Positions 1 to 38,957 of a DNA stretch of 38,957 nucleotides are shown here, piece by piece (the stretch's first letter is position 1; each line of letters opens with the position of its first letter). Origin of the DNA: a virus; IMG/VR virus record IMGVR_UViG_3300045988_085954. One strand, 5' to 3'. The notes under the pieces are model-generated. The model was not told the origin of the DNA and did not search any database. It was given only the letters and a program-made list of their open reading frames with translations. The position numbers and the translations under genes were made by a program.

Positions 1-65
1 CTGTGACTAGCCCGGCTAGCCTCCCTTTGGTTACCTAAGGACGATGGCAACAACCAGACTTGCTA
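1..65. repeat. 65-bp exact direct terminal repeat (copy 1), identical to 38893-38957
   Basis: Positions 1-65 (ctgtgactagcccggctagcctccc...cttgcta) are repeated exactly at 38893-38957. The window ends inside the repeat, so it may be longer. This fits either a true direct terminal repeat of a T7-like phage or an assembly overlap of a complete genome. Confidence 0.8.
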
Positions 66-281
66 TACTAACAAGTAGTGTCAGTACTTTGTATAGCGTG
101 TCGTGCTCGTCCTCTTGCCTACCATTGATTACTATGATGTAGTAGTTAATGGTGGGCTTTTTACGTTTCATCGCCTCACATCTCTTATAATGTACTGCGC
201 AACTATACAGGCCTTTATTACCGGATTTGCGATTTTCATTTACCAGAATACGCAATAGAAGCTTTTAGCGAGTGCTAAATA

Positions 282-466: not shown

Positions 467-484
467 GTGCTTATTGGTGCTTAT
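467..484. repeat. 18-bp direct repeat gtgcttattggtgcttat (copy 2)
   Basis: Exact copy of 282-299. Confidence 0.7.
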
Positions 485-735
485 ATTACACATACACACT
501 CGTGATTCTCGATGAATCTATACAGAGACAAACGAGTGACTCTGTAGTGTCTACCTACCTTGAAGGTCTTTAGTTTACCCTCTCTCATGTACCTTGTAAC
601 GGAGGACAGAGGTAGGTTTAGCATGATTGCTACATCTTTAGCACTAAAGGCTATTGCCTTATCCCATTGACCAGACTTACTACTATATAACTTGTTCATT
701 TCATCTTCTATCATTATATAATATACCTCATACAT
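481..735 (-). CDS. Small HTH DNA-binding protein (Xis/MerR-like HTH_17 type)
   Basis: The motif FSAKDVAIMLNLPLSSVTRYMREGKLKTFKVGRHYRVTRLSLYRFIE has the helix-turn-helix plus wing pattern of excisionase/MerR-family binders. It is the last gene after the large terminase (positional analogue of T7 gene 19.5). The true start may be an internal Met. Confidence 0.5.
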   Translation of the reverse strand: MYEVYYIMIEDEMNKLYSSKSGQWDKAIAFSAKDVAIMLNLPLSSVTRYMREGKLKTFKVGRHYRVTRLSLYRFIENHECVCVI

Positions 736-1052
736 CTTACCTCTTTATCTGTTTATGGTCTATTACCTTTATTATTCATTCTGTTTATTTATATAAATAA
801 TAGAGGTAGCAATCTTTATATAGACTGTCTCTCACCATGACTAACCTAGTACATCATTTAGATAACTTTGTCACGTCACCTTTAGGTTAGCCTTTAGGAG
901 CTTATACAAAATATCTTACCTACTACACCACTCATAGACACATACTCCGTCTGTGGACATGAGACACCTAGTAGGTACTATATATAACCTTTTCTCTCTC
1001 TTCTTCACCTTATGTCCCACCTAGGACTTCGTATTGGGTTTATTGACTTTTA

Positions 1053-1075
1053 AGTAACTTGTGTCTCACCTATAT
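1053..1075 (-). promoter_or_regulatory. Phage-RNAP promoter copy (right-end, phiOR-like)
   Basis: Plus strand reads aacttgtgtctcacctata, which matches the core cttgtgtctcacc found upstream of the capsid, SSB, dUTPase and RNAP genes. It lies in the AT-rich non-coding region 736-1122. Confidence 0.45.
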
Positions 1076-1122
1076 GAGAGGAAAATCAATAAAAAGTGCG
1101 ATTTGTCCTCTCTAGGTGAACT

Positions 1123-3047: not shown

Positions 3048-3063
3048 GTTATCTACCTCCTTT

Positions 3064-4631: not shown

Positions 4632-5204
4632 TCAACCTCCTTCGTCTGTTGTGTTGTTGTTGAAGAATGGAATATCGTTGAAGGACTGAATGTCTTTCAA
4701 TGGGTAGCGGTCACTGTCCAAGACGATTGCCTGTACCTTCCCCATGTCGTACATATTCAGGTAGCCTACCAAAGTGTTGAGCTTCTGAAGGATGTAGGCA
4801 TGGATGGTTCCCCCGATACCATAAGGTATCTGGAAGGTGCCTACTTTATCCTCTTGCTTGTAGAGGAAATAGAGGTCTAGCTTGCGGATGTCAAGACCGT
4901 CATGTGGTCGATAGAGGGTATATGGCTCTATCTTCCTGATGTCAAGGCCATCATGAGGTCGATAGGTGACAAATGCTTCTGTGGTACCATCGATAGCAAC
5001 ATCGCTACCTTCCCACAAATTAATTTTATCGTCCTGCTTGTAGGTGAAGTAGACCTCTAGTTTACGGATGTCGAGACCTTTATGCTCGTTGTAGGTTGCA
5101 TAGGCATGTGTGATACCTCCTGCACCCTCAGGTAATGTGTTGTCAAGTGCTACGCCTTGTTTCACATAGACAGCATATCCATCTGTCTTACCTACAAGAG
5201 CCAT
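4632..5204 (-). CDS. Tail-fiber-associated protein with a triplicated internal repeat
   Basis: Three tandem copies of (R)PHDGLDIRK(L/I)(E/D)xY(F/T)xYK. The corresponding DNA repeats lie at about 4826-5084. Confidence 0.4.
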   Translation of the reverse strand: MALVGKTDGYAVYVKQGVALDNTLPEGAGGITHAYATYNEHKGLDIRKLEVYFTYKQDDKINLWEGSDVAIDGTTEAFVTYRPHDGLDIRKIEPYTLYRPHDGLDIRKLDLYFLYKQEDKVGTFQIPYGIGGTIHAYILQKLNTLVGYLNMYDMGKVQAIVLDSDRYPLKDIQSFNDIPFFNNNTTDEGG

Positions 5205-5206
5205 AA

Positions 5207-6109: not shown

Positions 6110-6129
6110 AATATCTCCTCCAATCTCTA

Positions 6130-6825
6130 TTAAGCTAACTGAATCGCAAGGCTATCTGGGTGGAATTGCATAACATCACCTTCGATATAACCTACTACTT
6201 TCACATAGGAACCCGCAGTATTCGGAGGTGACGTTTGGTAAACGCCATCTTCCCCTACGTACACGGTACTGCCATCAGGAGCATCTGTCACTGCATACTG
6301 CCCCTGTTCCAATACTTTGACCTTCCCATTATGTGAGTCAGCTAAGGCAATCACGACATCTGCAAGTGTTGTATAGTCACTCATGGTAGCCTTTACGAAC
6401 CCTCCTGCCTTATAGCCAAGCAGGGTGCCACGGGTGCAAGACACACCCTCCGCAAGGTTCACGGTACGCTCTACCTGAAGCTGTCTTACGTCCTGCTGAA
6501 GCTCTGTAATCGTGAAGCTACCTTTTTCCTCGATGACATGAAGAAGCTGAAGCTGAAGCATCGTCAGGTCAGCTTCACGCAAGACTGAACCATCATGGAA
6601 TTTCACCAGACGGTCGGTCGTGGTCTGGCGATAAATCTTGATGGTATCTGTAGCCTGTGTGTCGCGGTACAATGTGAGGGTGCTACCATCCACCTCGTAC
6701 TCCACGTTGATGGTCAACTCTTTGTCATTGAGTTTGCACTTCACAAATGCTTTTTCCAAGTATGGGAAGGGAATAGAATATTCATGTCTACCACCATCGT
6801 AGGTGGCATCTATCACAATCGACAT
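6130..6825 (-). CDS. Tail fiber N-terminal (tail-attachment) domain protein, gp17-like
   Basis: The N-terminus DGGRHEYSIPFPYLEKAFVKCKLNDKELTINVEYE parallels the T7 gp17 N-terminus LDGSNRDFNIPFEYLARKFVVVTL...LTINTDY. Confidence 0.7.
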   Translation of the reverse strand: MSIVIDATYDGGRHEYSIPFPYLEKAFVKCKLNDKELTINVEYEVDGSTLTLYRDTQATDTIKIYRQTTTDRLVKFHDGSVLREADLTMLQLQLLHVIEEKGSFTITELQQDVRQLQVERTVNLAEGVSCTRGTLLGYKAGGFVKATMSDYTTLADVVIALADSHNGKVKVLEQGQYAVTDAPDGSTVYVGEDGVYQTSPPNTAGSYVKVVGYIEGDVMQFHPDSLAIQLA

Positions 6826-6834
6826 ATAACCTCC

Positions 6835-9800
6835 TTATCTCTTCTTCTCTGGGTAGCCCGACTGATTCACTAGGTACTGCTGAATAACCGTGAGCGGAAT
6901 GAAGTTCGGAATCGGCAGGAGCTTCAAGGCGTTCTTGAAGTCCTTCTGGGTTGTCTTATCATTCGTTGCATGACTAAAGGCATGGTAGACCTGAAGCAGA
7001 GGTTCGACACCTGCACTTAGGGCAGGAATCTGACTGATAAGGTCACCGCCAATATCACTCATGGTTCTCTCTTTGGTATTCTTATAGGTCTTTGCGTCCC
7101 GCTCTACGGTCGTGCGAATCGTCGGAGCCCCCGTGGCAATCTCGTACCAATCATTCGCGAAGGACAATGGAGAACCAAGGATAGTCGAGCGGAATGCAAT
7201 GGCACGCTCAAGATTTCCTTTGCTGAACATGTAGTCCTTGTATTCCTCTGCTTTCTGGTCGAGACCTGCGGCTTTATAGGCCGCATAGGTAGCACCTGCA
7301 CGAGCCGCATAGACCGCCGTGTTCGTGACAATAGAGGCCATTGTTGCAAAGGCATCATCAAGGTCATGGGCTTTCAAGGCACGCATGGTCTGGGCATTGA
7401 TGGAACGCAAGGTGTAGTCCTTGAACTGGAACAGGAGTTGTGTCAGGCTGTTGCGACTCTTGAGCAGGTTCTTGTTACCCTGTCTGTTGGCAGGTACAAT
7501 GGCACGCTCTGCCTGAAGCTGAATCAGGTTGTACCACTTCAGGAAACTATTCATATCCTCGTTCTGCCATTCCTTGACATCAAAGGACGTAATGTTACCA
7601 TCGGCATCCATCTTCGTATACTGACGAATACGAGCCTGAATGTCCTGCCAGTCCTTATCTGAGACATGAGCCGCCCGAAGTTTCTTTGTGCTGAAGGGGT
7701 TACGGAGCCACGGTGTCTTTCCCTGTGTTGCTACACGAATGGAATCCATCATGGTCGAGATACGCATGCCACGCATCATGCTGTCGGTCATCTTCGGGAG
7801 CATGTTGATAGCTGAAGTCACCTTACCGAGGTTGGCTGTGATGTCACCTGCCTTAATGAGCACCTTGTTTGCAAGGTCATGTTGGTCGGTGAGCGCCTCC
7901 CTGATGACCTTATCACCATAGTTGACCGAGAAAATCTGGGATTCCATCTGTGCGCCGAACATATAATCTTCTGCGTCACGGATGAGTTGTGCACTCTGCC
8001 TGCCATACTTGACATCTTCCATTAATTTACCGATTGGAGAGAAGATTCGGAACAGCTGAGACACACCACCATAGGCCATCGCTCCACCAAGTTCACCGAA
8101 CTGGTTGAAACCCATGTTGGCACCATTCTTTGCATAGGAGAAGTTCCTTAGGATATGTGCGAGTGCTCCAAGTTTCCCAATGGCTGATTCATCCTCAGGA
8201 CGGACGCCACGGAACTCTGCAATAGATTTCTTCATATCCAACAGTTCCCTCTGCACCTGTTTGTCTGAGACACCATGTCCAATGGCAGAAGTCAATTCCT
8301 TCTCAGCCTTTTTGAAGAAATCATTAAGACCCTTCTGGCTCCCAAAGACATTCATAAGACTTGCTTCACCTGCGAAGCGATTGATTGCCTTGCCAACCAT
8401 CGAGTCCATATCATAGGTGCGGAGGTTGTTGTCAAAGGAGAACTCTTTACCATTAGGTAACTTCAAGATACCCGTGGTGTCAATCGGAACACGCGCCTTG
8501 AAGAAAGAGAGGTTGCCAAGGTTGCCGAGATTCTTTGCGTCGGCAGGGTCGAAGACACCATTGAGAATGAAGTCGACTGCCTTTGGGACAGCTTTATCAA
8601 TCCAGTCCTCTACCTCCTGAGGCGTTGCAACCTCTGGAATTAATTCTTTTGGTTTCCACTTACTCTTGTCAGAGACACGAGATTGCATCACTTCATTTGC
8701 GACCTTGATTCTCTCATTTTCCATTTTCTTCTCACGAATGATTTTTTCTTCGATAATATCTTTTTTGACAAAGGTACGATAGTATTGGTCGAAGAACTCA
8801 CGCGCTTGTTCGACTGCTGTCTTTTGGTGTGTGTCGATGAAGTTGCCAATGATGAAGTCCATCTTACGCTGATTATCCATCTGTCTCCAAAGTTCTTCAT
8901 CAACCTCATACCACTCTTTGTCGATCATGTTGCGCGCCGTAGAACCTACATCACTCGCGGAGCGTTTCCCAAGGCTAATCATGAGTTGCCTCAGTTTATG
9001 CATGTGCTCTACGGCTTCTGTTACTTCAGGTGGAATGTCTGGGATAATGTTTGCGATGTTCTTTGCATACTTTGCGTTATAGGCATTGACCACCATCATA
9101 TCAAAGGCTTCATTCGCGGCTTGACCGGGGATATGGCGATTAGAGACACACCACCGCTGTCGCGCATTGGCATAATCAAGGTAGGGTCTCGTCATTAGTT
9201 GTACAAGTCTGTTCTTGTTGGTCTCAGCAGAAATAGTTTTGACATTGCCAAGGCCGCGTCCTTGTGGATCATCCCAAATAAGCGGGGTGTACTTTCGGAG
9301 CGTATTGGAAACCGAGTTGACTCCTTCGCCAACGATTCCCTGCTCTAGGTGCTTCGCCACCCAACGGAGCGGACGGGTCATGACACCTGCTTTTAGGTCA
9401 ACCTGAGTCTCCCGTGTCACCTGCTGTTCCAGATGATAGAAGTTCGCCATTGTCGCGGGGTTCGTGAGGTTGCTCTCCGAATACTGAAGACCTGCGAATG
9501 CCGTGGAACCGTCAGGATTCGTATGGAATACCTCAGGGTTCCGCTTTTCCTGCACCTGTTGCCTCATAATCTCCTTGACCTGTGTCATAGAGAAATGTGT
9601 GTCATATCCTTCCTTGTTGAGCCTTTTGTGGAAGGATCCTTTCACACGAGACCACATAGAATCAGGGAGTGTGTTATCTTCGACCATCTGGGCAAAGATT
9701 TCCTCTGGGTCGTAGCTACCTGCTTTGGCACGGGCTTCAAAGAAAGCTGTTCCTTCTTTCTCCGCCTGTTTTGCCACATAGTTCATGAGACCATCATAGG

Positions 9801-23448: not shown

Positions 23449-24030
23449 TCACTCGTAGGAACACCTCTTCTCTTTACATGACTTACAGTTTGGCTTGACA
23501 TTCCCAAAGACCTGAGGACATGCCGCAACAAGTGCCTGATAAATCTGCTGTGCAAGTTCCTGATGTTCTTTACTAGCACGCTTACAAAGACGCTTCGGCA
23601 GGTACTCAAACCATGCGCGGAAATTGCCCGTGATGACGAGTTTGTACTCTGCCGCTTTGGGGAGCATATAGGCGATGTCTTCTTTCTTGCAGACACCTTC
23701 AGCTACCTTAAGGTGATAGACCTGCATGATGTATTTTGTCATGTAGTCAATCATGTCATCACCTGTCTCATAGACTCCATGCAGTTCACTTCCGCGACTG
23801 GACTGAACCGTAGGACTGAAATGACGATGACGGGTAAGCTGTAGTAACGTCGTGATACTACAAGTAATCTCGAAGGTTGCATAGCAATGCTCCAAGACAC
23901 TCAAGTGACCTGCTTCAATGATGTGTTGAATCACAGCATCAGAGGCCTGTTTCTGGTAGCATTGCCCTGCCGCTCTCTTTAAGAGATTCATTGCATCGGG
24001 TGTCATGCTAATCAGTTTTGCTACACTCAT
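23449..24030 (-). CDS. thyX: Flavin-dependent thymidylate synthase ThyX
   Basis: The ThyX signature RHRxxSxxxxSxR is present as TRHRHFSPTVQSSR. Confidence 0.75.
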   Translation of the reverse strand: MSVAKLISMTPDAMNLLKRAAGQCYQKQASDAVIQHIIEAGHLSVLEHCYATFEITCSITTLLQLTRHRHFSPTVQSSRGSELHGVYETGDDMIDYMTKYIMQVYHLKVAEGVCKKEDIAYMLPKAAEYKLVITGNFRAWFEYLPKRLCKRASKEHQELAQQIYQALVAACPQVFGNVKPNCKSCKEKRCSYE

Positions 24031-25106: not shown

Positions 25107-27008
25107 TCAGTGACAATCGCACCAATTCTTACCAATGATTCCTTCAGTGTCCAACTGCATACGGAATCCAAAGAACTCCTGCGCGTCACGCATAGCCGCC
25201 TGTGCCTCAGAGACAACAATCTCAGCAATCTCTTTGGTACGACATGCTACCTGAATTTCATCGTGAATCCATGCCATGTAGGCAAAGTCACCATCCCATC
25301 CATGTTTCAGACCACGCTGAATCAGCCGTTCTTCTGTCCTGACAATCCACTTCTTGCACACGAGGGCACCTGCGGATTGCAGGAGCAGATTCAGTGCCGA
25401 ATGTGGACTGCGTACATGCAAAAGTCTCCCATCGAGACCTTTAAGATAATGCCGTTTCCAACGAACGACCTTACCACGGTCAGTTTCAACAATAGCATTC
25501 TGAACGGCATCCCGGAGATTCTTGATAGCAGGTGTCGCTTTCAGGAATTTGCGCTTAATGCGCTTTCCGTCAGTTGCGTCACCACCAATGATTTTGCCAA
25601 TCTTTGCATCTCCTGCACCATATAAGAAGGCGTATATGAAGGTCTTCGCCTGATTTCTTTCAGGCAATCCTGCCGCCTTCTGATTCATGGTGTGGATGTC
25701 TCCATTCAGGATGGTGTGTGCATACTTTCCCTTATCGTATGGTGACATGTAGTGAGCGAGACACCTCAGTTCAAGGCCACAAGCATCAATACCTGCTTGC
25801 CACCAATCCCCTGCACTCCACAAGGCGCGACACTCAGCACCATAAGGTGAGCCTACGTGTGGCACCTGAGCCACGTTAGGAGAACTATGGGTAGCTCTGC
25901 CACTCACAGCACCATTGGGAACCACGCGACCATGAATGCATCCATCATCGGGGTCATAGGCAGAGAGCCACGCATTACTGCCATTGGCAATCTGACCAAG
26001 ACGCTTCTTCAACATCAAGGACTCCTGTATCAGCCCTGTGATTTCTCGTAGTTCCTCAGGGCACGCTGTATCTTCCTTGATGTATTGCATGATGATGTCA
26101 TCCATCTTCAGGCGATAATCAGCCAAGTTTGGATTCTCATCCATGTCTGGGATATCATAGAGGTCTGGGTTGTCTGGGTTGTAGTTGTACATGGTACGAA
26201 AGACATATTCAATCTGCTGTCTGCTGTTAGGATTGAATGTCTTGTACTTCTGAATTGGAACTCCTGCTTTATAGCCAAGACGCTTGTTGTCTCGCTTTGG
26301 CACGAATACCTTATCTGGAATCTCAGGTATCTTTTGGAGGAGCGTGGTCGTAATGATAGCCTGACGTTCCTTCAGTTCCTCAGAGAGCTTCAAGGCTCCC
26401 TCATAGTCGAATTTGAAACCATTGCGTTCCTGCTTCGCCATGAGCCATGCTACCTGATGTTCCAGTTCAATCGCTCTTGAAGAATAAGGCTTTGCGGTCA
26501 GCTTCTCATAGAGTGCTTTCGTGACCCACACATCCTGCTCGTTATAATCAAGCATCTCCGGATTGTAGACCGCCCATGCGTCTTCCTGTTCACCATAGGT
26601 TCCCTTGAGGACACCCAAGCGATACCCCCACGCCATGAGTTTGTGGGATTTATACAGGGTTTTGGGGAGCTTTCCAGACTTCATGAGGCCGAGGTCTATC
26701 GTGTCAATGTTTGAATAAATGAGACGAGCGAGGACAAGCGTGTCCACAACCTGCTCCTGTTGATCATACGAGATGCGAAAAAGATGTGGATAGAGCTTCT
26801 CAAGGGCGGGGATGTCATAGTCAATCACATTATGACCACACAGTTTGCCGCCCTGCGTGATTGTATCTTGAAGCATCTTGACTCCCTCCTCTACATTGGT
26901 GGGGTCAAAGCGATACATCTTTTTCGTCTCTGTATCATAGACACACATGCAATGAAGGACGCTTACTTCCTTCAGAAGACCATTTGTCTCAATATCAAAC
27001 ATCAACAT
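25107..27008 (-). CDS. DNA polymerase, family A (T7 gp5-like)
   Basis: 3'-5' exonuclease motif MLMFDIETNG, polymerase motif A DACGLELR, motif B RNQAKTFIYAFLYG, motif C HDEIQV. GGAGG ribosome-binding site. Confidence 0.95.
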   Translation of the reverse strand: MLMFDIETNGLLKEVSVLHCMCVYDTETKKMYRFDPTNVEEGVKMLQDTITQGGKLCGHNVIDYDIPALEKLYPHLFRISYDQQEQVVDTLVLARLIYSNIDTIDLGLMKSGKLPKTLYKSHKLMAWGYRLGVLKGTYGEQEDAWAVYNPEMLDYNEQDVWVTKALYEKLTAKPYSSRAIELEHQVAWLMAKQERNGFKFDYEGALKLSEELKERQAIITTTLLQKIPEIPDKVFVPKRDNKRLGYKAGVPIQKYKTFNPNSRQQIEYVFRTMYNYNPDNPDLYDIPDMDENPNLADYRLKMDDIIMQYIKEDTACPEELREITGLIQESLMLKKRLGQIANGSNAWLSAYDPDDGCIHGRVVPNGAVSGRATHSSPNVAQVPHVGSPYGAECRALWSAGDWWQAGIDACGLELRCLAHYMSPYDKGKYAHTILNGDIHTMNQKAAGLPERNQAKTFIYAFLYGAGDAKIGKIIGGDATDGKRIKRKFLKATPAIKNLRDAVQNAIVETDRGKVVRWKRHYLKGLDGRLLHVRSPHSALNLLLQSAGALVCKKWIVRTEERLIQRGLKHGWDGDFAYMAWIHDEIQVACRTKEIAEIVVSEAQAAMRDAQEFFGFRMQLDTEGIIGKNWCDCH

Positions 27009-27275: not shown

Positions 27276-27297
27276 TCCCTGTCTTGTGTCTCACTTA
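27276..27297 (-). promoter_or_regulatory. Phage-RNAP promoter upstream of the small coiled-coil gene and the DNAP gene
   Basis: Plus strand tccctgtcttgtgtctcacttaa; the sense strand runs directly into the GGAGG ribosome-binding site. Confidence 0.55.
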
Positions 27298-29105
27298 ATA
27301 TCCGGCTTTGCGTAGTAACGCTTTGCGGCCTCTTTCTGCCGAGCGTCTGAGAAGTTCGTGATACGCTTCAGATAGCCTATGACACGTGTGCCATAGTCTA
27401 CATTCTCGCTACCACATTTCTTGCATGCTTTGCGCGTCACGGGGTCAATCGTTCCACAATCATTGCAGATGGTACAAAGGACATTGGTTGTCCAGTACGG
27501 TACGCCATTCTTGCTACAGAGCTTGAAGAGCGTTTTTGCCTGTTCGTAGGACGGAAGCTGTTCAAGGTTCAGATGAAGTGCTGAACCACCGTCAAGGGAA
27601 TCCGTGACCTCATGTGCATACATCTCAATCTTGTCAAGAACGGAAAGGTTGGTGTCTTCTACCCGATAGAAGTAAGAGTTATAGCAATCACGCTTGACAC
27701 CTGAAAAGCCATCTTCCTTATCCCACTTCGCATTTTTGACACCGAGATTTTCAGCGGGTACAAGTTCCGTGTTGAAGCGACAACCATAACGCTGAAGAGC
27801 TTTCTTGTTCTCATCCTTGAAGATACCAAGGACATTAGACACCCATTTCTTGTAGGTGTCATTGTTACTAATCTCGTAGCCATATCTTTCAGCCGCCTCT
27901 ACGAGACCATTCACGCCAATGGTAAGGAACTGCTTGTCGATGTCCATGAACCCGGCAGTATAGGCAGGGAGAAGCCCTGCTTTGATGTATTCTTTATAGA
28001 CGGCTTTAGAAGCCATCAGGTATTTATGGACATCTTGAATCTGCTCACGGAGTGTGTTTTCAAAGTCATCATGTCCACTGATTGCGAGGCGTGCCAGACG
28101 GTTCATGTTGATGGTAATGACCTGCGCTGAACCTGTCACGACACCACCTGCCCCGAGGCTGTAGCTGAAGGTGTTGTCTGCAAGCTCGTTACGGAGGCGA
28201 CAACACGAAGCAAGGGAATCTACGGAATCCGACATGTAGACAAAGAAGCTGTGTCCTTTGCTCATCTGCTCTGCACAGAAGTCTACGAACTGTGGGTCGA
28301 TGAATCCACCTTTACCGTCCGTCAGGATACTTGCGGTAAGCACTGGATACGTCAACAGTTCTTTGTGTCGCTCCTTGCGGAACCACTCCATGAAGAACTT
28401 CTGGAGTTCCATAAGGCTATCCATGTCAGGCTGAGTACCATCTGGATAGTAGAAGTTGCCAAACATCTCCTGCATGTACGGGCGGTCGAAGACCGAGATG
28501 TTCCAGAAGACACTCTGGTCACCCCGAGCAGAAGCAGGCTGATTCAAGCCGTAGACAACACCCTGAAGTTCCTGCTTGATTTCCTTTGCGTTGGTCTTCA
28601 GGTAGTCTTTGCCATACTGCTTGCGTGCGAAGTAGTCGAAGTAGTGAAGGAATTCCACGGTTGCTACTGCACCTGCGAAGTTGGAGGCCACCTGATAAAC
28701 AAGGTTGACAAAGGAACCACAGAAGGACTGAAGGTTCGTCGGGGCTTTCGAGACACCTCCCATGCATTTTGTACCTTCGAGCAGAAAGGGGTATAGCGTG
28801 ATAGAAGCACAGTACGGCTTCAGGGATGTCTCATCATGCACGTAAATAAAGTGTTCAGCGAGGTCGAGGAGGTAGTTGTTCCCTACCTCCCACCCGAACA
28901 TTTCTCGCACCTTATCCCGCACCATCGCCCGATTGAGTGTGATGGTATACGGTTTGTACATCTCTGCTTCCAGAGTTGCCAATGTCTTGCGCGTGACATT
29001 GGCATTGGCATCCACTTCGGAACCACTGGAAGCATTACTTGCCTCTGTATAAGAGCGGATGAAGTCGAGGCGGTCATTCATCTGACTAGTTGATAATGCT
29101 TTCAT
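27291..29105 (-). CDS. nrdD: Anaerobic ribonucleoside-triphosphate reductase NrdD (class III RNR)
   Basis: C-terminal Zn-ribbon CxxC...CxxC followed by the glycyl-radical motif RVIGYL. The ATG start at 29105 overlaps the nrdG stop as ATGA. Confidence 0.9.
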   Translation of the reverse strand: MKALSTSQMNDRLDFIRSYTEASNASSGSEVDANANVTRKTLATLEAEMYKPYTITLNRAMVRDKVREMFGWEVGNNYLLDLAEHFIYVHDETSLKPYCASITLYPFLLEGTKCMGGVSKAPTNLQSFCGSFVNLVYQVASNFAGAVATVEFLHYFDYFARKQYGKDYLKTNAKEIKQELQGVVYGLNQPASARGDQSVFWNISVFDRPYMQEMFGNFYYPDGTQPDMDSLMELQKFFMEWFRKERHKELLTYPVLTASILTDGKGGFIDPQFVDFCAEQMSKGHSFFVYMSDSVDSLASCCRLRNELADNTFSYSLGAGGVVTGSAQVITINMNRLARLAISGHDDFENTLREQIQDVHKYLMASKAVYKEYIKAGLLPAYTAGFMDIDKQFLTIGVNGLVEAAERYGYEISNNDTYKKWVSNVLGIFKDENKKALQRYGCRFNTELVPAENLGVKNAKWDKEDGFSGVKRDCYNSYFYRVEDTNLSVLDKIEMYAHEVTDSLDGGSALHLNLEQLPSYEQAKTLFKLCSKNGVPYWTTNVLCTICNDCGTIDPVTRKACKKCGSENVDYGTRVIGYLKRITNFSDARQKEAAKRYYAKPDIK

Positions 29106-29623
29106 GTTTGAAACAAATGCGTGCAATCTACGAAACGATTTTTCATCCTAACCAATTGGTATTTGTCGTAGATTACATCTGTCTCCTTCCTGTAAAATCT
29201 TTGGTTTGTTGTCGGGGAGGAAAGACCCCCAAGCTCTGCTTTGTAGCTCCCTGTCTTCAGCCATGTGATACCAGAGTGTTCTGCTATGTATGTGTTTGTC
29301 TCTTCATCATCAAGGCCACTATAGAGACACGTCGGGGCAATCTCTGAGAGATCGTCGAGTAATTTCAGCAAGTCTGGTGTGCTCATCTTGTTGCATGTGC
29401 CTCCCATCAGGACGATAGCATTCGCCCCGGACTCTATGGCATTCTCTGCCCCTCTCAAGACATCCTCAAGACTCGTAGGAGATTCCACTTCTTCCCATAG
29501 CTCTTTGCTGTGACAGCCTTTGCACCTCTGGGTACATGAGCCAAGCTCGATGAAATAAGCAATCTTGTCTGGTACCTCATTCAAGGTAATACCTGTGGAA
29601 ACAACAGGAACTAGAACTGACAA
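29102..29623 (-). CDS. nrdG: Anaerobic RNR activating protein NrdG (radical SAM); TTG start
   Basis: Radical-SAM motif CTQRCKGC. A GGAGG site sits 7 nt upstream of the TTG at 29623, inside the primase-helicase 3' end. The ATG-extended ORF to 29737 would overlap the primase gene by 127 nt, and 173 aa is the typical NrdG size. Confidence 0.8.
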   Translation of the reverse strand: MSVLVPVVSTGITLNEVPDKIAYFIELGSCTQRCKGCHSKELWEEVESPTSLEDVLRGAENAIESGANAIVLMGGTCNKMSTPDLLKLLDDLSEIAPTCLYSGLDDEETNTYIAEHSGITWLKTGSYKAELGGLSSPTTNQRFYRKETDVIYDKYQLVRMKNRFVDCTHLFQT

Positions 29624-31260
29624 TTTGAGTCCTCCTTTTCTGTCTTGATTTCTAAGGGGTCTACGTCCTCTATGGTGTTGGTCGATTTGTTGAACCTCAG
29701 GTACCCTGCGAGACCCGTGTTGCCTGTGAAGCGACATTTGAGTACCCTAAGTTTCAAGGTGTTCTTCATGTCTTCATCGTCGGCCTGTTGGTTTCTCTCA
29801 AGTGCCAAAATGGTGTCGGGTATCTGCTTGAGTGTACCTGAGCCACGGAGGTCATCAAGGGAAATCGTGCCCCCCTGTTCAAATGGAACTGTCTTTGTGT
29901 CCCCCTTGCGGAGGTGAGACACCACGACAATCCCTGCTCCTGTCTCTTCTACGAGTGCACGGAGCTTTGTCATGAGCATGTCAATGGCTTTGCGCTCATT
30001 GACGCTTGATTCATCGAGACCACTGACCGCTATGGATACGTGATCAAAGATGACAAAATCACAGCCTTCACCCGTGATAAGAAAGCGTATCTTCTCAAGG
30101 AGATTGTTTCCTTCAATCGACCCAAAGTGGTCATAAAGACAAAAGCCCCCATCACCAAATACGGCATCATAGACAGGCTTTAGTTCCTCTTTGTCTATGG
30201 TGTTCCATAAGAGGTGAAGGGGTTTTGCTACAGCAATGGACAGGAGGTCTCGAAGTGTCTTGTTCTTGTTCTCTTCGAGCATGACCATGCCCACTTTCAT
30301 ATTATCTTGCATCTCCAGTTTGAAAGCGATTTCTCGTGCCATCGTGGATTTGCCAATACCTGTACCTGCTGTGAGCAGAAGCATTTCGCCTTTGCGGATT
30401 CCCATTGTCATCTTTGTCAGGTCTTCTGCCCACGGGAAAGAATAAGAAGGAATCTCTGCCTCCTGTGAGAAGAACTCTTCCTTCAGGTCTTTGGCATTGA
30501 TGATACCATCTGGACGATATTCCCTAGCTTGCCAGATTGCACGGATGACCTCATCGGCCTTGCCATTCAAAAGGCACTCATTTGGGTCTTTCATTGGCAG
30601 GGTAGCAATCTTCAGCTTGTGGAGTGGCAGGATACCAGAGACAGACTTCACGGCCTCCTGACCCGCTTCATCCATGTCGAACATGACGATGACTTCATCA
30701 AACCCTGAGAGCCAATCGGCTTGAGCTTTGAAGACATCTTTTGCACTACGACAACCAAAAGGGATGGATACCACAGGGTATTTGTTGTCTTGCAACTGCG
30801 ATACCGTGAGACAATCAATCTCACCTTCTGTGATAATCAGTTTCTTGCCTGTCGAAAACAAATGCTGACCAAAGAAGATGTTGTCTTTCTTGCCACGAAC
30901 AATGAAGTTCTTCTCGCGATCTCGCGTCTTCTGAAAGATGACACGACCATCCTTGCGATAATCAGCGACTTGAATGGGTTGCCCGAAGTCGTTCTTTGAC
31001 AAGTGATAACCATACTTACGACAGGTGTCAGAGGTTATGCCTCTAGCCTTTAGTGGTCGAATCTCCATTTCAGATTCTGGAATGACAGGTAAATGCTTAG
31101 AGGACACAGACCTCCCTCCTTCTTCTTCTTTTTCATCTAGCCATGTAAACTTCTCGCAGACAAAACAAAATTTGTGGTCAGTATAGATGGTCGCTCCATC
31201 ACTACTGCCACAAAACTCACACGGTACATGGGCTTTGACAATCTCTGACACATAAATCAC
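29611..31260 (-). CDS. DNA primase-helicase (gp4-like)
   Basis: N-terminal Zn-finger CEFCGSS...CFVCEKF, TOPRIM region, and DnaB-type helicase with Walker A GTGIGKST. Confidence 0.9.
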   Translation of the reverse strand: MIYVSEIVKAHVPCEFCGSSDGATIYTDHKFCFVCEKFTWLDEKEEEGGRSVSSKHLPVIPESEMEIRPLKARGITSDTCRKYGYHLSKNDFGQPIQVADYRKDGRVIFQKTRDREKNFIVRGKKDNIFFGQHLFSTGKKLIITEGEIDCLTVSQLQDNKYPVVSIPFGCRSAKDVFKAQADWLSGFDEVIVMFDMDEAGQEAVKSVSGILPLHKLKIATLPMKDPNECLLNGKADEVIRAIWQAREYRPDGIINAKDLKEEFFSQEAEIPSYSFPWAEDLTKMTMGIRKGEMLLLTAGTGIGKSTMAREIAFKLEMQDNMKVGMVMLEENKNKTLRDLLSIAVAKPLHLLWNTIDKEELKPVYDAVFGDGGFCLYDHFGSIEGNNLLEKIRFLITGEGCDFVIFDHVSIAVSGLDESSVNERKAIDMLMTKLRALVEETGAGIVVVSHLRKGDTKTVPFEQGGTISLDDLRGSGTLKQIPDTILALERNQQADDEDMKNTLKLRVLKCRFTGNTGLAGYLRFNKSTNTIEDVDPLEIKTEKEDSNCQF

Positions 31261-32729: not shown

Positions 32730-33164
32730 TTATTCTCTGGGGTTGACTTTCTCACCTTTAGCGACCTTATCGAGCCATTCGGCGTACCTCAGAATCTTTG
32801 TGGTTTCCTTCGCGACATCATCTTTCTTGCCAAGACGGCAAGCATATTTGATGATATTGCCTCGCAAGAATCCCATGAAGGCTTCCGCAGACATTGCGGA
32901 CTGCATCAACTCAATCGGTTGTACGTCACCCTGATAGTGGGCATCATAATGCTCTGACATCGTCGCTTGCATCAATTCGCCTCCCGACAAAACCAGAATT
33001 AAAGGCATGTCTGAATCAGGGTCATCGAATGCCACCCGGTATTTCCAATTCATGCTCTCCGGGTCAAAGGTACGCACTCGAATAACGCCAAGACGCTTCT
33101 CTGTGCCATCGTGATACTGGATGGTATCACCCACCTTGAATCTTGCTTCTCCCATTACAATCAC
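32730..33164 (-). CDS. Conserved phage protein (DUF3310-like C-terminal motif?)
   Basis: HYQGDVQPIELMQ...FLRGNIIKYACRLGKKDD...KILRYAEWL resembles the HY..IEPI...GNIIKY..R..KG motif. The ATGA overlap couples it to the dUTPase gene. Confidence 0.35.
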   Translation of the reverse strand: MIVMGEARFKVGDTIQYHDGTEKRLGVIRVRTFDPESMNWKYRVAFDDPDSDMPLILVLSGGELMQATMSEHYDAHYQGDVQPIELMQSAMSAEAFMGFLRGNIIKYACRLGKKDDVAKETTKILRYAEWLDKVAKGEKVNPRE

Positions 33165-33652
33165 TCCTTACCTGTGGAACCAAGGCCACCTTCGCCTCTT
33201 TTGGTCTTGCTAAGTTCCTTTACCTCACTAAAGGATGTCGGAACATTCTTTTCAATCATCACTTGTGCAATGCGAACACCTGCCTTGATACTGACAGGCT
33301 CACGCGCAGGATTTTCGACCAAGAGTTTCAGTTCACCCCGATAATCGGAATCAATGATTGCTACCTGATTCGCCAACCGCAGGTGACTATTGAGACCCAC
33401 AGAAGACCTCAGAAACACTTTCATGTGGTATCCTTCAGGAATCTCAAAGGCTAATCCCGTGGGAACGACGGTTGCCTTGTCGCTTGCGTTTAAGGTATGC
33501 AGATAGATGTCCTCAAGGGTACGGATGTCGAAACAGGCGGCACCATCGGTCTTGCGTTCTGGAAGACAAGCACGCTCATCCAGACGCTTAACTTTCACGA
33601 CAACATCAGCCGTAGTGCTATGGGTTATTTTAGGTTTTCTTGTAGTTGCCAC
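33161..33652 (-). CDS. dut: dUTP diphosphatase
   Basis: dUTPase motifs are present: AIIDSDYRGEL, GVRIAQ and a C-terminal RGEGGLGSTG. Confidence 0.85.
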   Translation of the reverse strand: MATTRKPKITHSTTADVVVKVKRLDERACLPERKTDGAACFDIRTLEDIYLHTLNASDKATVVPTGLAFEIPEGYHMKVFLRSSVGLNSHLRLANQVAIIDSDYRGELKLLVENPAREPVSIKAGVRIAQVMIEKNVPTSFSEVKELSKTKRGEGGLGSTGKE

Positions 33653-33697
33653 TCACAACTACCTCCTTTCATTTTCCAAGACACAAAAAGTTATGAA

Positions 33698-33722
33698 CTT
33701 CCTCTCTGTCTTGTGTCTCACT
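33698..33722 (-). promoter_or_regulatory. Phage-RNAP promoter (origin-proximal B, reads into dut)
   Basis: Plus strand cttcctctctgtcttgtgtctcactttagc. Confidence 0.55.
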
Positions 33723-33897
33723 TTAGCTAACTAAAGGATTTTGTAGTATCCTTTAGTTAATTAAAGCAACTTATAGTTTACCTTTAGGTTATTTACCTTA
33801 TGGTTATTATTTATAAAGCAATAGAGGTAGTGACCTAAGGATAAACCTATTGGTAGAAGAGGTTCCTTTTGTTACCTTATGGTATCTATTACTCTCC
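33723..33897. other. AT-rich non-coding region with iteron-like repeats between two tandem phage promoters (candidate primary replication origin)
   Basis: There is no ATG on the sense strand. Sense-strand repeats are CCATAAGGTAA (x2), CCTAAAGGTAA, CCTTAGGTCA and ACTAAAGGATA, together with the small palindromes ctttagctaactaaag and ctttagttaattaaag. The layout RNAP gene - promoter - AT-rich - promoter mirrors the T7 primary origin. Confidence 0.5.
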
Positions 33898-33922
33898 TCC
33901 TGTCTTGTGTCTCACCTACATC
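33893..33922 (-). promoter_or_regulatory. Phage-RNAP promoter (origin-proximal A)
   Basis: Plus strand ctcctcctgtcttgtgtctcacctacatc, immediately after the RNAP-gene terminator. Confidence 0.55.
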
Positions 33923-33944
33923 TTGTGGTTATTTTTATAGCAAG

Positions 33945-33985
33945 ACACAAGAAAAGAGGCTGTACATGACAACCTCTTTTTCTAA
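33945..33985 (-). terminator. Intrinsic terminator directly after the RNAP gene (early-transcript terminator), potentially bidirectional
   Basis: Stem aaagagg (33953-33959) pairs with cctcttt (33973-33979) around a 13-nt loop. On the minus strand it is followed by TTTTCTTGTG, and on the plus strand by TTTTTCT. Confidence 0.5.
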
Positions 33986-33991
33986 AACTAT

Positions 33992-36634
33992 TTATGCAAA
34001 ACAGAAATCTGATTTTGCCACTAAATCAAGGTCGAGAGTGCCAAACTTTGGTAACTCTGGTACTTCATCGAGATCATCAATAAGATAGCTCACGGACTCT
34101 AGGAATCCTGCGAGGTGATTCTGGTCTTTATAAAGACCAATAAATTCATCTCTGATAGTCTTGTAGAGACTCCCGGCATGGGCGGCATCTGTTCCGAAAC
34201 TGTCATGTATCATCATAAAGTTTCGATTGCCCTTCAGGTGCTCCGAGACCACTACCCTCTGTAGATGGCTTGCATCCATGCTATGAATGAAGTTGGGCGC
34301 TATGCCGTTCTGCTGTCTCCTATTGTCAATCTCATCGGTCTCCTCTTGATTGTAGAAGCGTACCTGAGAGCCATCAAAGCGCAACTTTATGCACTCTTGT
34401 CGCATCTTCATGTAGTTCTGCTGAACTAAGAAGCCGTTCGGCGTTGTCCATGAAACTACCTCTCCAGATTGGCAGATAAGTCTTGCAACCTTCTGCAACC
34501 ATTCCATACCTTCAACAGCCTTGACAACAGTTGTCGCTACAGCTTCCCATATCAATTTAGCCATGTAGACAGCGGCCTGATTAGTATTCAAGAATGGACT
34601 GTTGTCTGGATGGTCAAGGACATACGGGTGGATGATGTCGGTCAGCAAATTTTCCTTGAATCCATACTGCTTTGACCCATACGCCAAGGTCATTACTGAC
34701 CGCTTGCAGACCTTGCGGGTAATGCCATCCTTGCCAAACTTGATACGATTGAAGGCTACCCAATTCTGTGCGAGTGTCTTCGTTCCATACTTGTAGGAAT
34801 CGGAACCTTCTTTTTTCTCGTCCTCTGTCCCCGTCTGGACATCCTTGAGGAGCTGAACATTTACCTTATCAGCTACGATTGAATAGATGTCTTGCACCTT
34901 GTCCGAGGGTACGAGGTTTACGGCAAAACCACCTACCTCATCCCGGAGGAGGGCTGAGAAGTGTTGCAGGCCGGAGCATGTACCATCAAACGCCAAGGGC
35001 AGATTCGACATAAATCCCTTGACAGAACCACTGTTTTCTGCCTTGTAGTCATTTAGGCGTTTCCATTCGTGACAGAAGGACAAAAATTCCATCGGGTAAT
35101 CACCTTTAGACACCTCATACCACCATGTGTAACCTAGAGGGTCTTCTGCACTTGCGATAATATCGACTGTATGCTCCTTGACCCATGCTACACGGTCGGC
35201 AAATGCTATCTTGTCGTTACCTGCAAGGTTTGCGCCGTGGATAGCCATCCACTTGTCATCCCCTTCAGCCAATGGCGAAGGATTTGCGAACAGGAGCAGG
35301 GATTTCTGGATGTCATCCCCTTGCGGACTCAGCGCGGTCGGGATAGGATAGCAACGACCACGATAATCTACGTTCCACGGAAAGTAAATTTTGTCATACT
35401 CGCTGAACTTTTCGGCCACCTTGAGTGCCAAAAGGCATCTAAGGGCTTTGCTCTTGCGTGCTTCTTCCTGCTTGTAGAGGCCTACGGCTTTCTTTTTGTG
35501 CTCCTTCACTTGCTCTTCAGGCGCATCCTCTGGGAGGCGTGGGAGTGTCTGATACGGTTCCGTCCTAGGAACGCCACCGAGTTCACCACCAGACGCATAG
35601 ATTTCCTTGAGTGTCTGCAAGATAAATGGATTGATGATAAAAGGCGTATCCTGCATGGCATTGAGAGCGTCATAAACTACTCCAAGGTCAATCGCTGACA
35701 GTTTCTTATTGTAGGCTTTCAGAAACTTTGTTTTTGTCTGTACCTTCAGCCGGATGAGCTGAGTGCCTAGCACGGACTCGCCATAATAGCCTCCATCATG
35801 TGGGTCAGTCCAATGGCGCGGCGGAATAATAGTTGGCATGTAGCGGACTGCATTCGCAATCATGTGGGACTCGTTGCTTTCCCATGTAGCCTTAAACCAA
35901 TCCGTAGCATCCACAGCTTTGATATGCTTTGTCCCCCGGCCTGTGCTTACCTCCCTTTCACGAATGACATAGTAATCGGAGCCTGCAATGAGCATTTCAA
36001 GCACCTTTGCGCCTAGGACTTCTACCTGCTGATTTGACCAAGCGAGACCTACATATCCTTCCTTGTTCATGCGGTTTGTTGCATAGGCCACACGATAAGA
36101 CGAACGTACACGCTGTTCTATGCCTTTGTCCATTGACTTTTTCAGCCATTTGACATCTGTATCCTTGTTGACCTCTTCCCATTGATAGAAGCGTTCAATA
36201 TCCGCTTCTCGCTTGATTTGCATCCCAATCAGCATAGCCACATTGGATAGGGTGGTCTGTGTTGTATCATGCGACATCAACACGGCATCCATCGCCTTGC
36301 TGTGTCCGGCGAGGACTAGGAGGTCTTCCAAAGCCTCCTCTTTTTCCCGATAGATGACTAAAAGTTCTTTCATTGGCAGGAGCCAAGCGCCTTGCGTGGT
36401 CTTCTTAGGGTGCTTTGCGTCCTCTAGGAGAGCGTGGATATTCTTGCGGCATGTCTCCCATGAGTGCTTCATGAGCTTGCCTGCTAGGTGCCCTTCGCCG
36501 CCTTCTCCCTCGCGCTTTGCCTTGTCAAGAGCTTCCTTCAGGTGCTCCTCTGCTTCCTGCTTTGCCTCCGCTTCTAGGAGGAGCTCCTGTGTGTAGAGCC
36601 CTCCGTATAGCTTTTCATATTCTTCAAATTTCAT
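33992..36634 (-). CDS. Single-subunit DNA-directed RNA polymerase (T7 gp1-like)
   Basis: 880 aa. Motif A DGTCSGLQHFSA, motif C IHDSFGT and a C-terminal ...DFCFA match T7 RNAP. A TGGAGG ribosome-binding site is present. Confidence 0.95.
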   Translation of the reverse strand: MKFEEYEKLYGGLYTQELLLEAEAKQEAEEHLKEALDKAKREGEGGEGHLAGKLMKHSWETCRKNIHALLEDAKHPKKTTQGAWLLPMKELLVIYREKEEALEDLLVLAGHSKAMDAVLMSHDTTQTTLSNVAMLIGMQIKREADIERFYQWEEVNKDTDVKWLKKSMDKGIEQRVRSSYRVAYATNRMNKEGYVGLAWSNQQVEVLGAKVLEMLIAGSDYYVIREREVSTGRGTKHIKAVDATDWFKATWESNESHMIANAVRYMPTIIPPRHWTDPHDGGYYGESVLGTQLIRLKVQTKTKFLKAYNKKLSAIDLGVVYDALNAMQDTPFIINPFILQTLKEIYASGGELGGVPRTEPYQTLPRLPEDAPEEQVKEHKKKAVGLYKQEEARKSKALRCLLALKVAEKFSEYDKIYFPWNVDYRGRCYPIPTALSPQGDDIQKSLLLFANPSPLAEGDDKWMAIHGANLAGNDKIAFADRVAWVKEHTVDIIASAEDPLGYTWWYEVSKGDYPMEFLSFCHEWKRLNDYKAENSGSVKGFMSNLPLAFDGTCSGLQHFSALLRDEVGGFAVNLVPSDKVQDIYSIVADKVNVQLLKDVQTGTEDEKKEGSDSYKYGTKTLAQNWVAFNRIKFGKDGITRKVCKRSVMTLAYGSKQYGFKENLLTDIIHPYVLDHPDNSPFLNTNQAAVYMAKLIWEAVATTVVKAVEGMEWLQKVARLICQSGEVVSWTTPNGFLVQQNYMKMRQECIKLRFDGSQVRFYNQEETDEIDNRRQQNGIAPNFIHSMDASHLQRVVVSEHLKGNRNFMMIHDSFGTDAAHAGSLYKTIRDEFIGLYKDQNHLAGFLESVSYLIDDLDEVPELPKFGTLDLDLVAKSDFCFA

Positions 36635-36654
36635 ATACTTGTGCCTCCATCTGG

Positions 36655-36687
36655 TTTTTCTCTATCTTGTGTCTCACCTAAATTTGT
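36655..36687 (-). promoter_or_regulatory. Phage-RNAP promoter immediately upstream of the RNAP gene (autoregulatory), with an inverted core copy facing the plus-strand gene
   Basis: Plus strand ttttctctatcttgtgtctcacctaaatttg. Its inverted copy gtagacacaagg lies at 36695-36706, so cttgtgtct and agacacaag form a 9-bp inverted repeat with a 22-nt spacer. Confidence 0.55.
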
Positions 36688-36751
36688 ATTACATGTAGAC
36701 ACAAGGCTAACTATACAATTTGTAAAACATGTGGTAGCATGTTATAGGGTG

Positions 36752-37372
36752 ATGAAAATGGATTTTGATGAAAAAGATGAAGCTATCCGCTTTCGCCTTT
36801 CAACTAGCATGAAGAGGAAACTTCAACTCATTGCAATGCGTCGCGGTCTCAATATGTCCCAATTCATCCGCAATTACATTGAGACAATCATTAATGAGGA
36901 TGAGAATCAAGACATGCTTGCCGCGCGTGATGCTAGGTATCTAGTGAATCCAAAAGATGAGGATGAAAATCCTTATGGTTCTATTGTTTCCACGAGGGTG
37001 CCAACAGAATTGAAAACCTTGTATAATGCCTGCTGTTCCTCTAATAGCTTGAAAGCTAGCGAGCTTATACGGAACTTCATGCGCGACTATACGGAATTTA
37101 GATTGCAGATGTACCCCGGTCACCTAAGGTCTCTATCAGGGTATCTAAGCTATTTCCTGCTGTTCCTAAGGATGGCAGAGTACCACAAAGGGAAGGCTTT
37201 CAAGTCTTGCCGTATGGTACACGCAAAGAACAAGATCATACCAGATACACCTATCATAGAAAAAGTTACTGCCTGTACTTATCGCGTAAATGACATATTA
37301 GCGGACTGCTATTACATCATTGAATTTGAAGATATAACTAATGTGAATGTCTCTTTTTCTCCCTTTGACTGA
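36752..37372 (+). CDS. Tandem ribbon-helix-helix (RHH) DNA-binding protein, the only plus-strand gene
   Basis: Two RHH units: IRFRLSTSMKRKLQLIAMRRGLNMSQFIRNYIETII and IVSTRVPTELKTLYNACCSSNSLKASELIRNFMRDY, each with a beta-strand with alternating polar residues followed by two helices, then a C-terminal domain of about 90 aa. The start is ATG 36752 or 36758, after an AGGGTGA site. The gene is convergent with the early genes. Confidence 0.6.
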   Translation: MKMDFDEKDEAIRFRLSTSMKRKLQLIAMRRGLNMSQFIRNYIETIINEDENQDMLAARDARYLVNPKDEDENPYGSIVSTRVPTELKTLYNACCSSNSLKASELIRNFMRDYTEFRLQMYPGHLRSLSGYLSYFLLFLRMAEYHKGKAFKSCRMVHAKNKIIPDTPIIEKVTACTYRVNDILADCYYIIEFEDITNVNVSFSPFD

Positions 37373-37382
37373 TACCTACACA

Positions 37383-37415
37383 CGAGACACAAGCAACTTT
37401 TTACCTTGTGTCTCG
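37383..37415. other. Perfect 11-bp-stem hairpin between convergent genes, built from the phage-promoter core
   Basis: cgagacacaag (37383-37393), loop caactttttac, cttgtgtctcg (37405-37415). It sits between the RHH-gene stop (37372) and the SprT-like gene stop (37432). Confidence 0.6.
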
Positions 37416-37431
37416 CCTTGCAGGAGCTGTT

Positions 37432-38892: not shown

Positions 38893-38957
38893 CTGTGACT
38901 AGCCCGGCTAGCCTCCCTTTGGTTACCTAAGGACGATGGCAACAACCAGACTTGCTA
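38893..38957. repeat. 65-bp exact direct terminal repeat (copy 2)
   Basis: Identical to 1-65. Confidence 0.8.

Follow-up and report, generated by a model that had tools for sequence, protein, structure and literature searches.

The IMG/VR virus record IMGVR_UViG_3300045988_085954, analysed here over its whole length of 38,957 bp and referred to as the window, is a complete T7-like phage genome in reversed orientation, with every long open reading frame (ORF) on the minus strand. The segment under study, 33653-33991, is the exact gap between the stop codon of the phage RNA polymerase gene and the GTG start of the dUTPase gene. An earlier note on this DNA had described it as an origin-like region, in which a terminator and tandem phage promoters accompany an AT-rich block of iteron-like repeats. 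The T7-type gene set of the window comprises RNA polymerase, endonuclease I, primase-helicase (29611-31260; PF21268, PF03796), family A DNA polymerase (25107-27008) and terminase subunits of T7 type, the small one at 2808-3098, and a gp2.5-like single-stranded DNA-binding protein is indicated by Pfam matches below cutoff (20-24 bits vs cutoffs of 26-27). The window encodes a T7-type replisome, of the kind that uses transcription-primed origins. Features of the segment and of its two neighbouring genes are as follows:

33992..36634, minus strand: single-subunit phage RNA polymerase gene, 880 aa, upstream neighbour of the module; 36-40% identical to T7-group RNA polymerases (tblastn)
33952..33980, minus strand: terminator-like hairpin with a 12-bp stem and a 5-nt loop, followed by CTTGTGTCTT (terminator scan; -15 kcal/mol, z = -3.3)
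33941..33951, minus strand: inverted copy of the promoter core (CTTGTGTCTTG), 30 nt upstream of P1, with which it pairs in a predicted RNA hairpin (-27.3 kcal/mol, z = -5.3)
33895..33923, minus strand: predicted phage promoter P1, core GTGAGACACAAGA at 33915..33903, score 32.3; next gene 263 nt downstream
33722..33902, minus strand: AT-rich non-coding block of 181 bp, 31% GC vs 47% in the genome, no sense-strand ATG
33874..33883, minus strand: motif copy 1, ACCATAAGGT (motif search)
33845..33854, minus strand: motif copy 2, ACCAATAGGT (motif search)
33833..33840, minus strand: motif copy 3, CCTTAGGT, one base shorter than the other copies (motif search)
33807..33830, minus strand: conserved core CTACCTCTATTgcTTTATAAATAA, which starts a segment of ~50 nt (33778-33830) paralogous to 763-809
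33795..33804, minus strand: motif copy 4, ACCATAAGGT (motif search)
33780..33789, minus strand: motif copy 5, ACCTAAAGGT, 15 bp from copy 4 (motif search)
33721..33766, minus strand: hairpin I1, abutting P2, with 19-nt arms 33721-33739 / 33748-33766 (core AACTAAAGGAT / ATCCTTTAGTT) and an 8-nt loop; 19-bp stem with one mismatch, fold -21.2 kcal/mol, z = -5.95
33701..33729, minus strand: predicted phage promoter P2, core 33721..33709, score 38.6; 69 nt upstream of the dUTPase start
33679..33689, minus strand: second inverted promoter-core copy, downstream of P2 (inverted pair I13; conserved in alignment A1; weak fold, z = -1.8)
33161..33652, minus strand: dUTPase gene, the first gene served by P2 (Pfam PF00692, E = 7e-24)

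Read along the gene strand, the polymerase stop is followed by the terminator-like hairpin, the inverted core, P1, motif copies 1-3, the core CTACCTCTATTgcTTTATAAATAA and copies 4-5, after which come hairpin I1, P2, the second inverted core, a Shine-Dalgarno sequence and the dUTPase start. The terminator and the tandem promoters around an ATG-free, AT-rich block described in the earlier note are all present, and as a palindrome the inverted repeat of I1 was found.

Phage promoters were predicted in two ways. The core GTGAGACACAAGA occurs 12 times genome-wide at up to two mismatches, against 1.45 expected, and a position-weight matrix built from seven strong promoter sites gave nine sense matches and no antisense match when the genome was scanned. 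More than 250 gene-free nucleotides lie only behind P1 and behind a pair of sites at the right end of the genome (1069 and the weak 1020, listed further below), the remaining promoters standing 0-71 nt from a gene. The 150 nt after P1 have 31% GC. The inverted core upstream of P1 is identical in four of the five sequences of alignment A1, and the fifth carries a single C-to-T change. An antisense promoter at 33940-33952 was considered and rejected, as no antisense site exceeds the position-weight threshold. Inverted core copies (CTTGTGTCT, with GTGTC inside) were found 11-30 nt from four promoter or promoter-like cores, at 33941-33951, 33679-33689, 36697-36705 and 37385-37393. The last of these is paired with 37405-37416 in a perfect 11-bp stem after a SprT-like gene. 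Inverted cores can form RNA hairpins.

No ORF of at least 20 aa lies inside the block (33722-33902), and a small ORF was rejected as its content because there is no ATG and indel lengths in relatives are not multiples of three. In duplex stability, the weakest 60- and 100-bp stretches of the block rank second lowest in the genome, after those in the right-end segment. About five copies of C(C)WTAAGGTAA had been claimed for it. Five copies of CCW(2-3)AGGT are indeed present, all in the same orientation, while only three fit the strict 11-mer. At up to one mismatch, CCWTAAGGTAA occurs eight times genome-wide (0.87 expected), three of these in the block. Enrichment against a shuffled control, a check that the earlier note had proposed, was evident: dinucleotide-preserving shuffles of the block contain on average 0.10 copies of CCW(2-3)AGGT, and none of 5000 reaches five. 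Motif-blind self-similarity of the block is likewise high (32 vs 7.8; 4 of 5000 shuffles reach 32). The repeat unit is 10-12 bp, and the copies are irregularly spaced, at 29, 14, 36 and 15 bp. From 25 distinct instances of the word in five phages the consensus ACCTAAAGGTnA was obtained, every instance being sense-oriented.

Chance similarity in an AT-rich spacer might be suspected, as the word class is short and AT-rich and the loose form CCW(2-3)AGG is found 39 times in the genome. We give this explanation practically no credence and count it as already refuted, given the shuffling result, the conservation of the block above the third-codon baseline and a core that is invariant in seven loci (see below). 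The repeats were also considered as degenerate upstream halves of promoters; this was rejected, since the likeness, which lies in a shared TAAGGT(G/A)A, fails in other clades, where promoters begin AATTGAG. An Rfam search of 33500-34100 returned only spurious sub-threshold matches of microRNA type.

Conservation in related phages

Megablast of 33000-37000 against deposited phage genomes gave no match. Relatives were taken from IMG/VR and metagenome assemblies, two of the latter bearing the title human gut metagenome; L003 and L030 are parts of one contig, called here the 86% relative. The whole module is present in seven related loci with polymerases 86-98% identical, so that the repeat block is conserved in relatives, as the earlier note had asked to be checked. 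The last 22 nt of its core (ACCTCTATTnnTTTATAAATAA) show no mismatches across the seven. Compared with the window, the module of L003 is 76.7% identical over aligned columns, the third codon positions of the RNA polymerase gene being 51.5% identical, and in L002 the corresponding values are 94.6% and 82%. Identity of the module above that of third codon positions indicates purifying selection as strong as on coding DNA. By these comparisons the segment is shown to be a selected non-coding module, consisting of the terminator-like hairpin, the predicted promoter P1, an AT-rich block predicted to melt easily with five ACCTAAAGGT-type words and ACCTCTATTnnTTTATAAATAA, the 19-bp hairpin and the predicted promoter P2.

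Among relatives, the terminator-like stem shows compensatory AU-to-GC changes, and the stem of hairpin I1 is invariant, with a loop of 7, 8 or 9 nt. A symmetric dimer operator at I1 was rejected on the same variation of the spacer between the arms, as an invariant stem with a variable loop suits a hairpin better than an operator of fixed spacing. The blocks of L003, L007 and L040 contain seven to eight motif copies, which in L003 and L040 form arrays spaced 11-12 bp.

In relatives with an inserted Rha-like gene, the module comes after that gene. This Rha/antirepressor-like gene, recognised by eye, lies between the polymerase gene and the hairpin/P1 module, at 7384-8200 in L001 and right after the polymerase stop in L007, L034 and L039; in L002, ~80 bp resemble its remnant. 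The junction after the polymerase gene appears to be an insertion hot spot. Despite the insertion, the terminator-like hairpin stays with P1 and not with the polymerase gene, which argues that the module travels as one unit.

In clades at 66-69% and 40% polymerase identity the block can no longer be aligned, and the layout is similar: behind one or two promoters comes an AT-rich block built of short repeats, here CTTAGG(G) or tCTTAAAGa. After the block of the 40% clade come a hairpin and the second promoter, and at the end of this block folding revealed a hairpin of -29.8 kcal/mol with a U run; the simple terminator scan had missed it, its loop being longer than 8 nt. Such a hairpin suggests that the first promoter in that clade would make only a non-coding transcript. 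In L058, a more remote relative with 46% identity over the polymerase C-terminus, six perfect tandem AACTAAAGG units with a 9-bp period follow the polymerase gene at 880-950, and behind this array there are an AT-rich stretch and an inverted CCTAAAGGAAC / CTTTAGGTTC pair.

The terminated transcript of the 40% clade, which would stop at a strong terminator before the next promoter, and the lack of any ORF behind P1 raise the question of whether P1 drives a dedicated non-coding RNA, regulatory or anti-host, in which the RNA and not the DNA is functional. We hold this to be very improbable. In the clade of the window no U-run terminator follows the block, so that P1 transcripts should run into P2 and the dUTPase gene; Rfam gave no match; and blocks of different clades cannot be aligned, having in common just their layout and class of words.

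Comparison with the T7 and T3 origins

The second region of interest lies at the right end of the genome, where the following features were found, together with a motif instance in the end repeat:

1049..1077, minus strand: right-end promoter (core 1069..1057) after the terminase gene, analogous to phiOR, score 29.8; next gene 334 nt downstream
1020..1008, minus strand: weak second promoter-like site, score 13.6
878..898, minus strand: two tandem CCTAAAGG copies in the non-coding region, conserved in L021 and L030
763..809, minus strand: paralogue of the block core (CTACCTCTATT...TTTATATAAATAA...TAAAGGTAA), within the least stable duplex stretch of the genome
24..40 (also 38916-38932), minus strand: CCTTAGGTAACCAAAGG in the 65-bp end repeat, a weak single instance (sequence match)

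The block and the right-end region share a local alignment of ~50 nt, with a score of 45 vs 19.7 +/- 2.6 for shuffles. An 11-mer common to both places, pointed out in the earlier note, has exactly two exact occurrences in the genome and extends into this alignment. The right-end motif copies and the phiOR-like promoter that the note had reported were recovered as well, the promoter with the paralogous segment downstream of it.

In T7, transcripts made by the phage RNA polymerase prime replication at origins, the origin contains an A/T-rich cluster, and phiOR serves as a secondary origin (PMC8373140; PMC12839067; bioRxiv 10.1101/2024.07.25.605042). In the T7 record, promoters phi1.1A (5848) and phi1.1B (5923) directly follow gene 1, and the AT-rich stretch after phi1.1B reads ACCTTAAGGTTTAACTTTAAGACCCTTAAGTG..., beginning with ACCTTAAGGT and including four C[CT]TWAAG words. 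In the T3 record (NC_003298), a rep_origin is annotated at 5682-5758 just after phi1.05, in sequence rich in CTTAAGGT, CTTTAAG and CTTTAGGT (CTTAAGG, CTTTAGG), and R1.1 directly follows phi1.1.

The segment of the window resembles the T7 primary origin in its place right after the RNA polymerase gene, in two tandem promoters, in an AT-rich non-coding stretch and in the class of its words, which are ACCTTAAGGT, CTTTAAG, CCTTAAG and CTTTAAG in T7. It resembles the T3 origin in that a promoter immediately follows the polymerase gene and AT-rich sequence comes next (CTTAAGGT, CTTTAAG and CTTTAGGT in T3), with a second promoter and an RNase III-type hairpin further on. The window promoter at 1069 parallels phiOR in lying after the terminase gene with no close gene and an AT-rich region behind. 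The features looked for in an origin of this type are thus present: a position directly downstream of the polymerase gene, predicted promoters in gene direction, and an AT-rich, easily unwound region downstream of P1. P1 and the right-end promoters without genes, the least stable duplexes behind both, and the ~50-nt paralogy together match T7, where a primary origin is accompanied by a secondary one of phiOR type.

The segment is best explained as the counterpart of the T7/T3 control region between genes 1 and 1.1, and as such it is an expected family feature and not a new kind of element. For the more specific proposal, that an origin of T7 type, primed by transcription, is combined here with a region of class II promoters and RNA processing, and that the right-end module is a secondary origin, we see an even chance. 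Under this proposal, which takes T7 as its model, the phage RNA polymerase would start at P1, which has no close gene, and transcribe into the AT-rich block. The opened duplex and the nascent RNA would be passed to the phage DNA polymerase as primer, with synthesis following the direction of transcription, and the displaced strand would let the primase-helicase load, so that synthesis could start in the other direction. Like phiOR in T7, the right-end promoter would, with the paralogous AT-rich segment, serve as a secondary origin. For the hairpin before P2, the likeliest role is that of an RNA element, a processing or stabilising site of RNase III type in the position of T7 R1.1, and not an operator; like R1.1 of T7 and T3, I1 has an irregular stem of ~20 bp and lies beside a promoter between gene 1 and the next gene. 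P2 would serve the dUTPase and DNA-metabolism genes. As the motif copies are co-oriented and downstream of promoters without genes, action on or through the transcribing phage polymerase, or on the displaced strand, would be favoured over an iteron-bound initiator.

Several observations weigh against an origin of this kind. Curves of cumulative GC and AT skew run monotonically and do not turn at the block, so the GC-skew signal suggested as a check in the earlier note was not seen, although T7-like genomes transcribed from one strand may show none. The layout does not copy that of T7 as closely as the note had stated: position, promoters and AT-richness agree, but the 181-bp block of the window lies between the promoters, while the T7 stretch (~80 bp, from phi1.1B to gene 1.1) is downstream of both. 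Between its promoters T7 has the RNase III site R1.1, and in the window only 69 nt separate P2 from the gene start. The likeness to T7 and T3 words was a post hoc observation on a loosely defined word class. Finally, the strong predicted RNA structure and the single motif orientation fit a leader acting purely at the RNA level equally well.

Such a leader, with an early terminator, class II promoters P1 and P2, a structured 5' region, RNase III or stabiliser hairpins, repeated words acting as RNA elements and no replication role, is the main alternative, though in our judgement an unlikely one. It would account for the fold of the 343 nt (-98.4 kcal/mol, z = -5.3), for the low z values of I1 and of the P1/inverted-core hairpin, for the invariant I1 stem with its 7-9 nt loop and for 25 motif instances that all point in the sense direction, and it would agree with the place of R1.1 between the T7 promoters and its annotated place in T3. 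Rfam gave no family match, and there is hardly any covariation to score because the stems do not vary. What a leader leaves unexplained is the paralogous segment behind the other promoter without a gene, the fact that both are the least stable duplexes, and the related words in the mapped origins of T7 and T3. A leader is, moreover, compatible with an origin role, because T7 combines both functions in one intergenic region.

The two model phages differ from the window in further ways. Compared with T7, the word of the window is longer and more regular (ACCTAAAGGTnA, five copies), a terminator-shaped hairpin stands ahead of P1, and no homology is detectable beyond short words. The window block has no ORF, but the T3 origin runs into the start of gene 1.05, and the second T3 promoter follows ~340 nt on, past a gene.

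The repeated word and the genome ends

Judged by its spelling, the ACCTAAAGGT word is one of a class found across the family, C(C/T)T(W)AAG(G), whose members also crowd the T7 and T3 origins and the end arrays of T7 type. The words CCTTAAGG, CTTTAAG and CTTTAGG occur in the mapped primary origins of T7 and T3, and CCTAAAG arrays are found at the ends of both genomes. In T7, windows with at least three C[CT]TWAAG per 100 bp are limited to the left end, the origin, one stretch inside gene 5 and the right terminal repeat. The SRL and SRR arrays of T7 and T3, with CCTAAAG units ~13 bp apart, are like the repeats of the window in the heptamer CCTAAAG, in single orientation and in lying downstream of a promoter without a close gene; the array of the window differs in being internal, after gene 1. 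To our knowledge, the function of SRL and SRR has never been established.

The earlier note had also placed the motif inside a 65-bp terminal repeat. Copies are found there, at 29-40 and 38921-38932, but the repeat itself may be an overlap from circular assembly. The exact direct repeat 1-65 / 38893-38957 overlaps the 3' end of ORF 255..31 (a small protein with a hydrophobic tail), a near-identical relative contig (L021, 6700-6953) continues through it without a break, and ATCTGTT is absent from the gene strand of the window; all three would fit such an overlap. The end region of the window has no CCTAAAG array either. A T7-type terminal repeat, understood as non-coding sequence with an ATCTGTT-type signal and CCTAAAG arrays, was accordingly not found in the window, and is present in L030 at 5085-5260. 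This T7-like repeat end contains four (C/T)CT(A/T)AAGtgtgacaa units, then tgtctcactctctATCTGTT, close to the T7 concatemer-junction sequence, and then CTAAAGGACTAAAGGATACC. In the 86% relative, the repeat end reads CCTAAAGtgtgacaa three times (CCTAAAG x3), followed by ...tctctATCTGTT (ATCTGTT), and the 12-mer ACTAAAGGATAC occurs only just downstream of ATCTGTT and in the hairpin of the block.

Taken by clade, the spelling of the word is the same in the block and in the genome-end arrays: CCTAAAG in the clade of the window, CTTAAAG/CTTTAAG in the 40% clade. We treat this apparent co-variation as a lead and not as a result, because it concerns two clades and a loosely defined word class. The idea of one motif linking the block with the genome ends, put forward in the earlier note, gains comparative support from the 86% relative and the 40% clade and is weak for the window itself.

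Co-variation of this sort would be expected if a factor and its sites evolve together, and it is one of the points in favour of true iterons or operators, that is, of ACCTAAAGGT repeats bound by a phage or host protein to initiate replication or to regulate P1 and P2. Others are the arrays spaced 11-12 bp in L003 and L040 and the form ACC-W4-GGT, which has palindromic ends and is over-represented genome-wide (11 observed vs 0.4-1.3 expected). As in iteron origins of plasmids and lambdoid phages, clustered short direct repeats stand beside an AT-rich, easily melted stretch. We nonetheless consider iterons quite improbable. The block has no cognate initiator gene of Rep, O or DnaA type, and its neighbours are RNA polymerase, dUTPase and DUF3310 genes; the motif has an asymmetric centre (TAAA) and its copies all face one way; the 10-12 bp unit is shorter than the ~17-22 bp of typical iterons and its spacing is irregular; and initiation in the T7-like family depends on transcription by the phage polymerase.

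Two candidate binders of the motif were examined and rejected, neither being co-conserved with it. The gene of the HTH_17 protein (735..481) is missing from L030, although the motif is expanded in L003 on the same contig, and the ribbon-helix-helix ORF (36641-37372) is present only in the two closest relatives, L001 and L002. Without an initiator gene, and with both DNA binders missing from motif-bearing relatives, the term iteron-like used in the earlier note is a misnomer.

Six ACC-W4-GGT sites lie outside both clusters, mostly in coding sequence (2573-2582, 4818-4827, 8449-8458, 23705-23714, 25839-25848 and 29151-29160), where ~1 is expected under Markov orders 2-4. T7 has two copies only, one of which opens the AT-rich stretch behind phi1.1B, as its initial ten bases.

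A broader proposal is that C(C/T)T(W)AAG(G) is a conserved cis-element of the T7 supergroup, marking the origin after gene 1 and the end arrays, and read by one phage factor that couples replication initiation to concatemer processing. We regard it as doubtful and rather unlikely. Co-orientation of the word with promoters without genes and its co-varying spelling would then imply a single factor, which may be the elongating RNA polymerase, the primase-helicase or the small terminase.

Neighbouring genes and implications

Some features of the genome outside the module were also recorded. A strong promoter, conserved in L001-L003, was predicted at 36665-36677 (-), score 38.5, 43 nt ahead of the RNA polymerase gene. 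Its place would imply self-amplifying expression of the polymerase; gene 1 of T7 is transcribed by the host polymerase only. The plus-strand ORF 36641-37372, the sole sizeable ORF in opposite orientation, has two weak ribbon-helix-helix matches (CopG/Arc-type) and has the early genes on one side and the polymerase promoter on the other; it may be a gene of repressor-like kind. A gene for anaerobic ribonucleotide reductase (NrdD) at 27291-29126 (-), within the DNA-metabolism region, fits an anaerobic gut host.

In the region 256-735, the excisionase-type HTH_17 gene is followed by direct TAAGCACC repeats around a long GC-rich hairpin. Among relatives, L001 carries a tyrosine-integrase fragment at 1-330 (Pfam match) and L023 an integrase-like reverse-strand ORF at 5690-7200, judged by eye; in the window no integrase was noticed, and no systematic search for one was made. 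The gene, the repeats and the integrases of relatives look like an attP/Xis-type module, and the clade would accordingly include temperate-looking T7-like phages.

The analysis provides a concrete primary-origin candidate, and a secondary-origin candidate at the right end, in an uncultivated clade of T7-like phages from the human gut, together with a map of the predicted promoters of the clade. Its interest lies mainly in the family-wide word class that appears common to origins and genome ends. Words of CCTAAAG/CTTTAAG type, known from the T7 ends, also fill the mapped origins of T7 and T3, and their spelling shifts jointly at both places in two gut clades. Since no function is known to have been assigned to the end arrays of T7, this joint pattern may offer a route to testing whether a single factor reads the word at both places.

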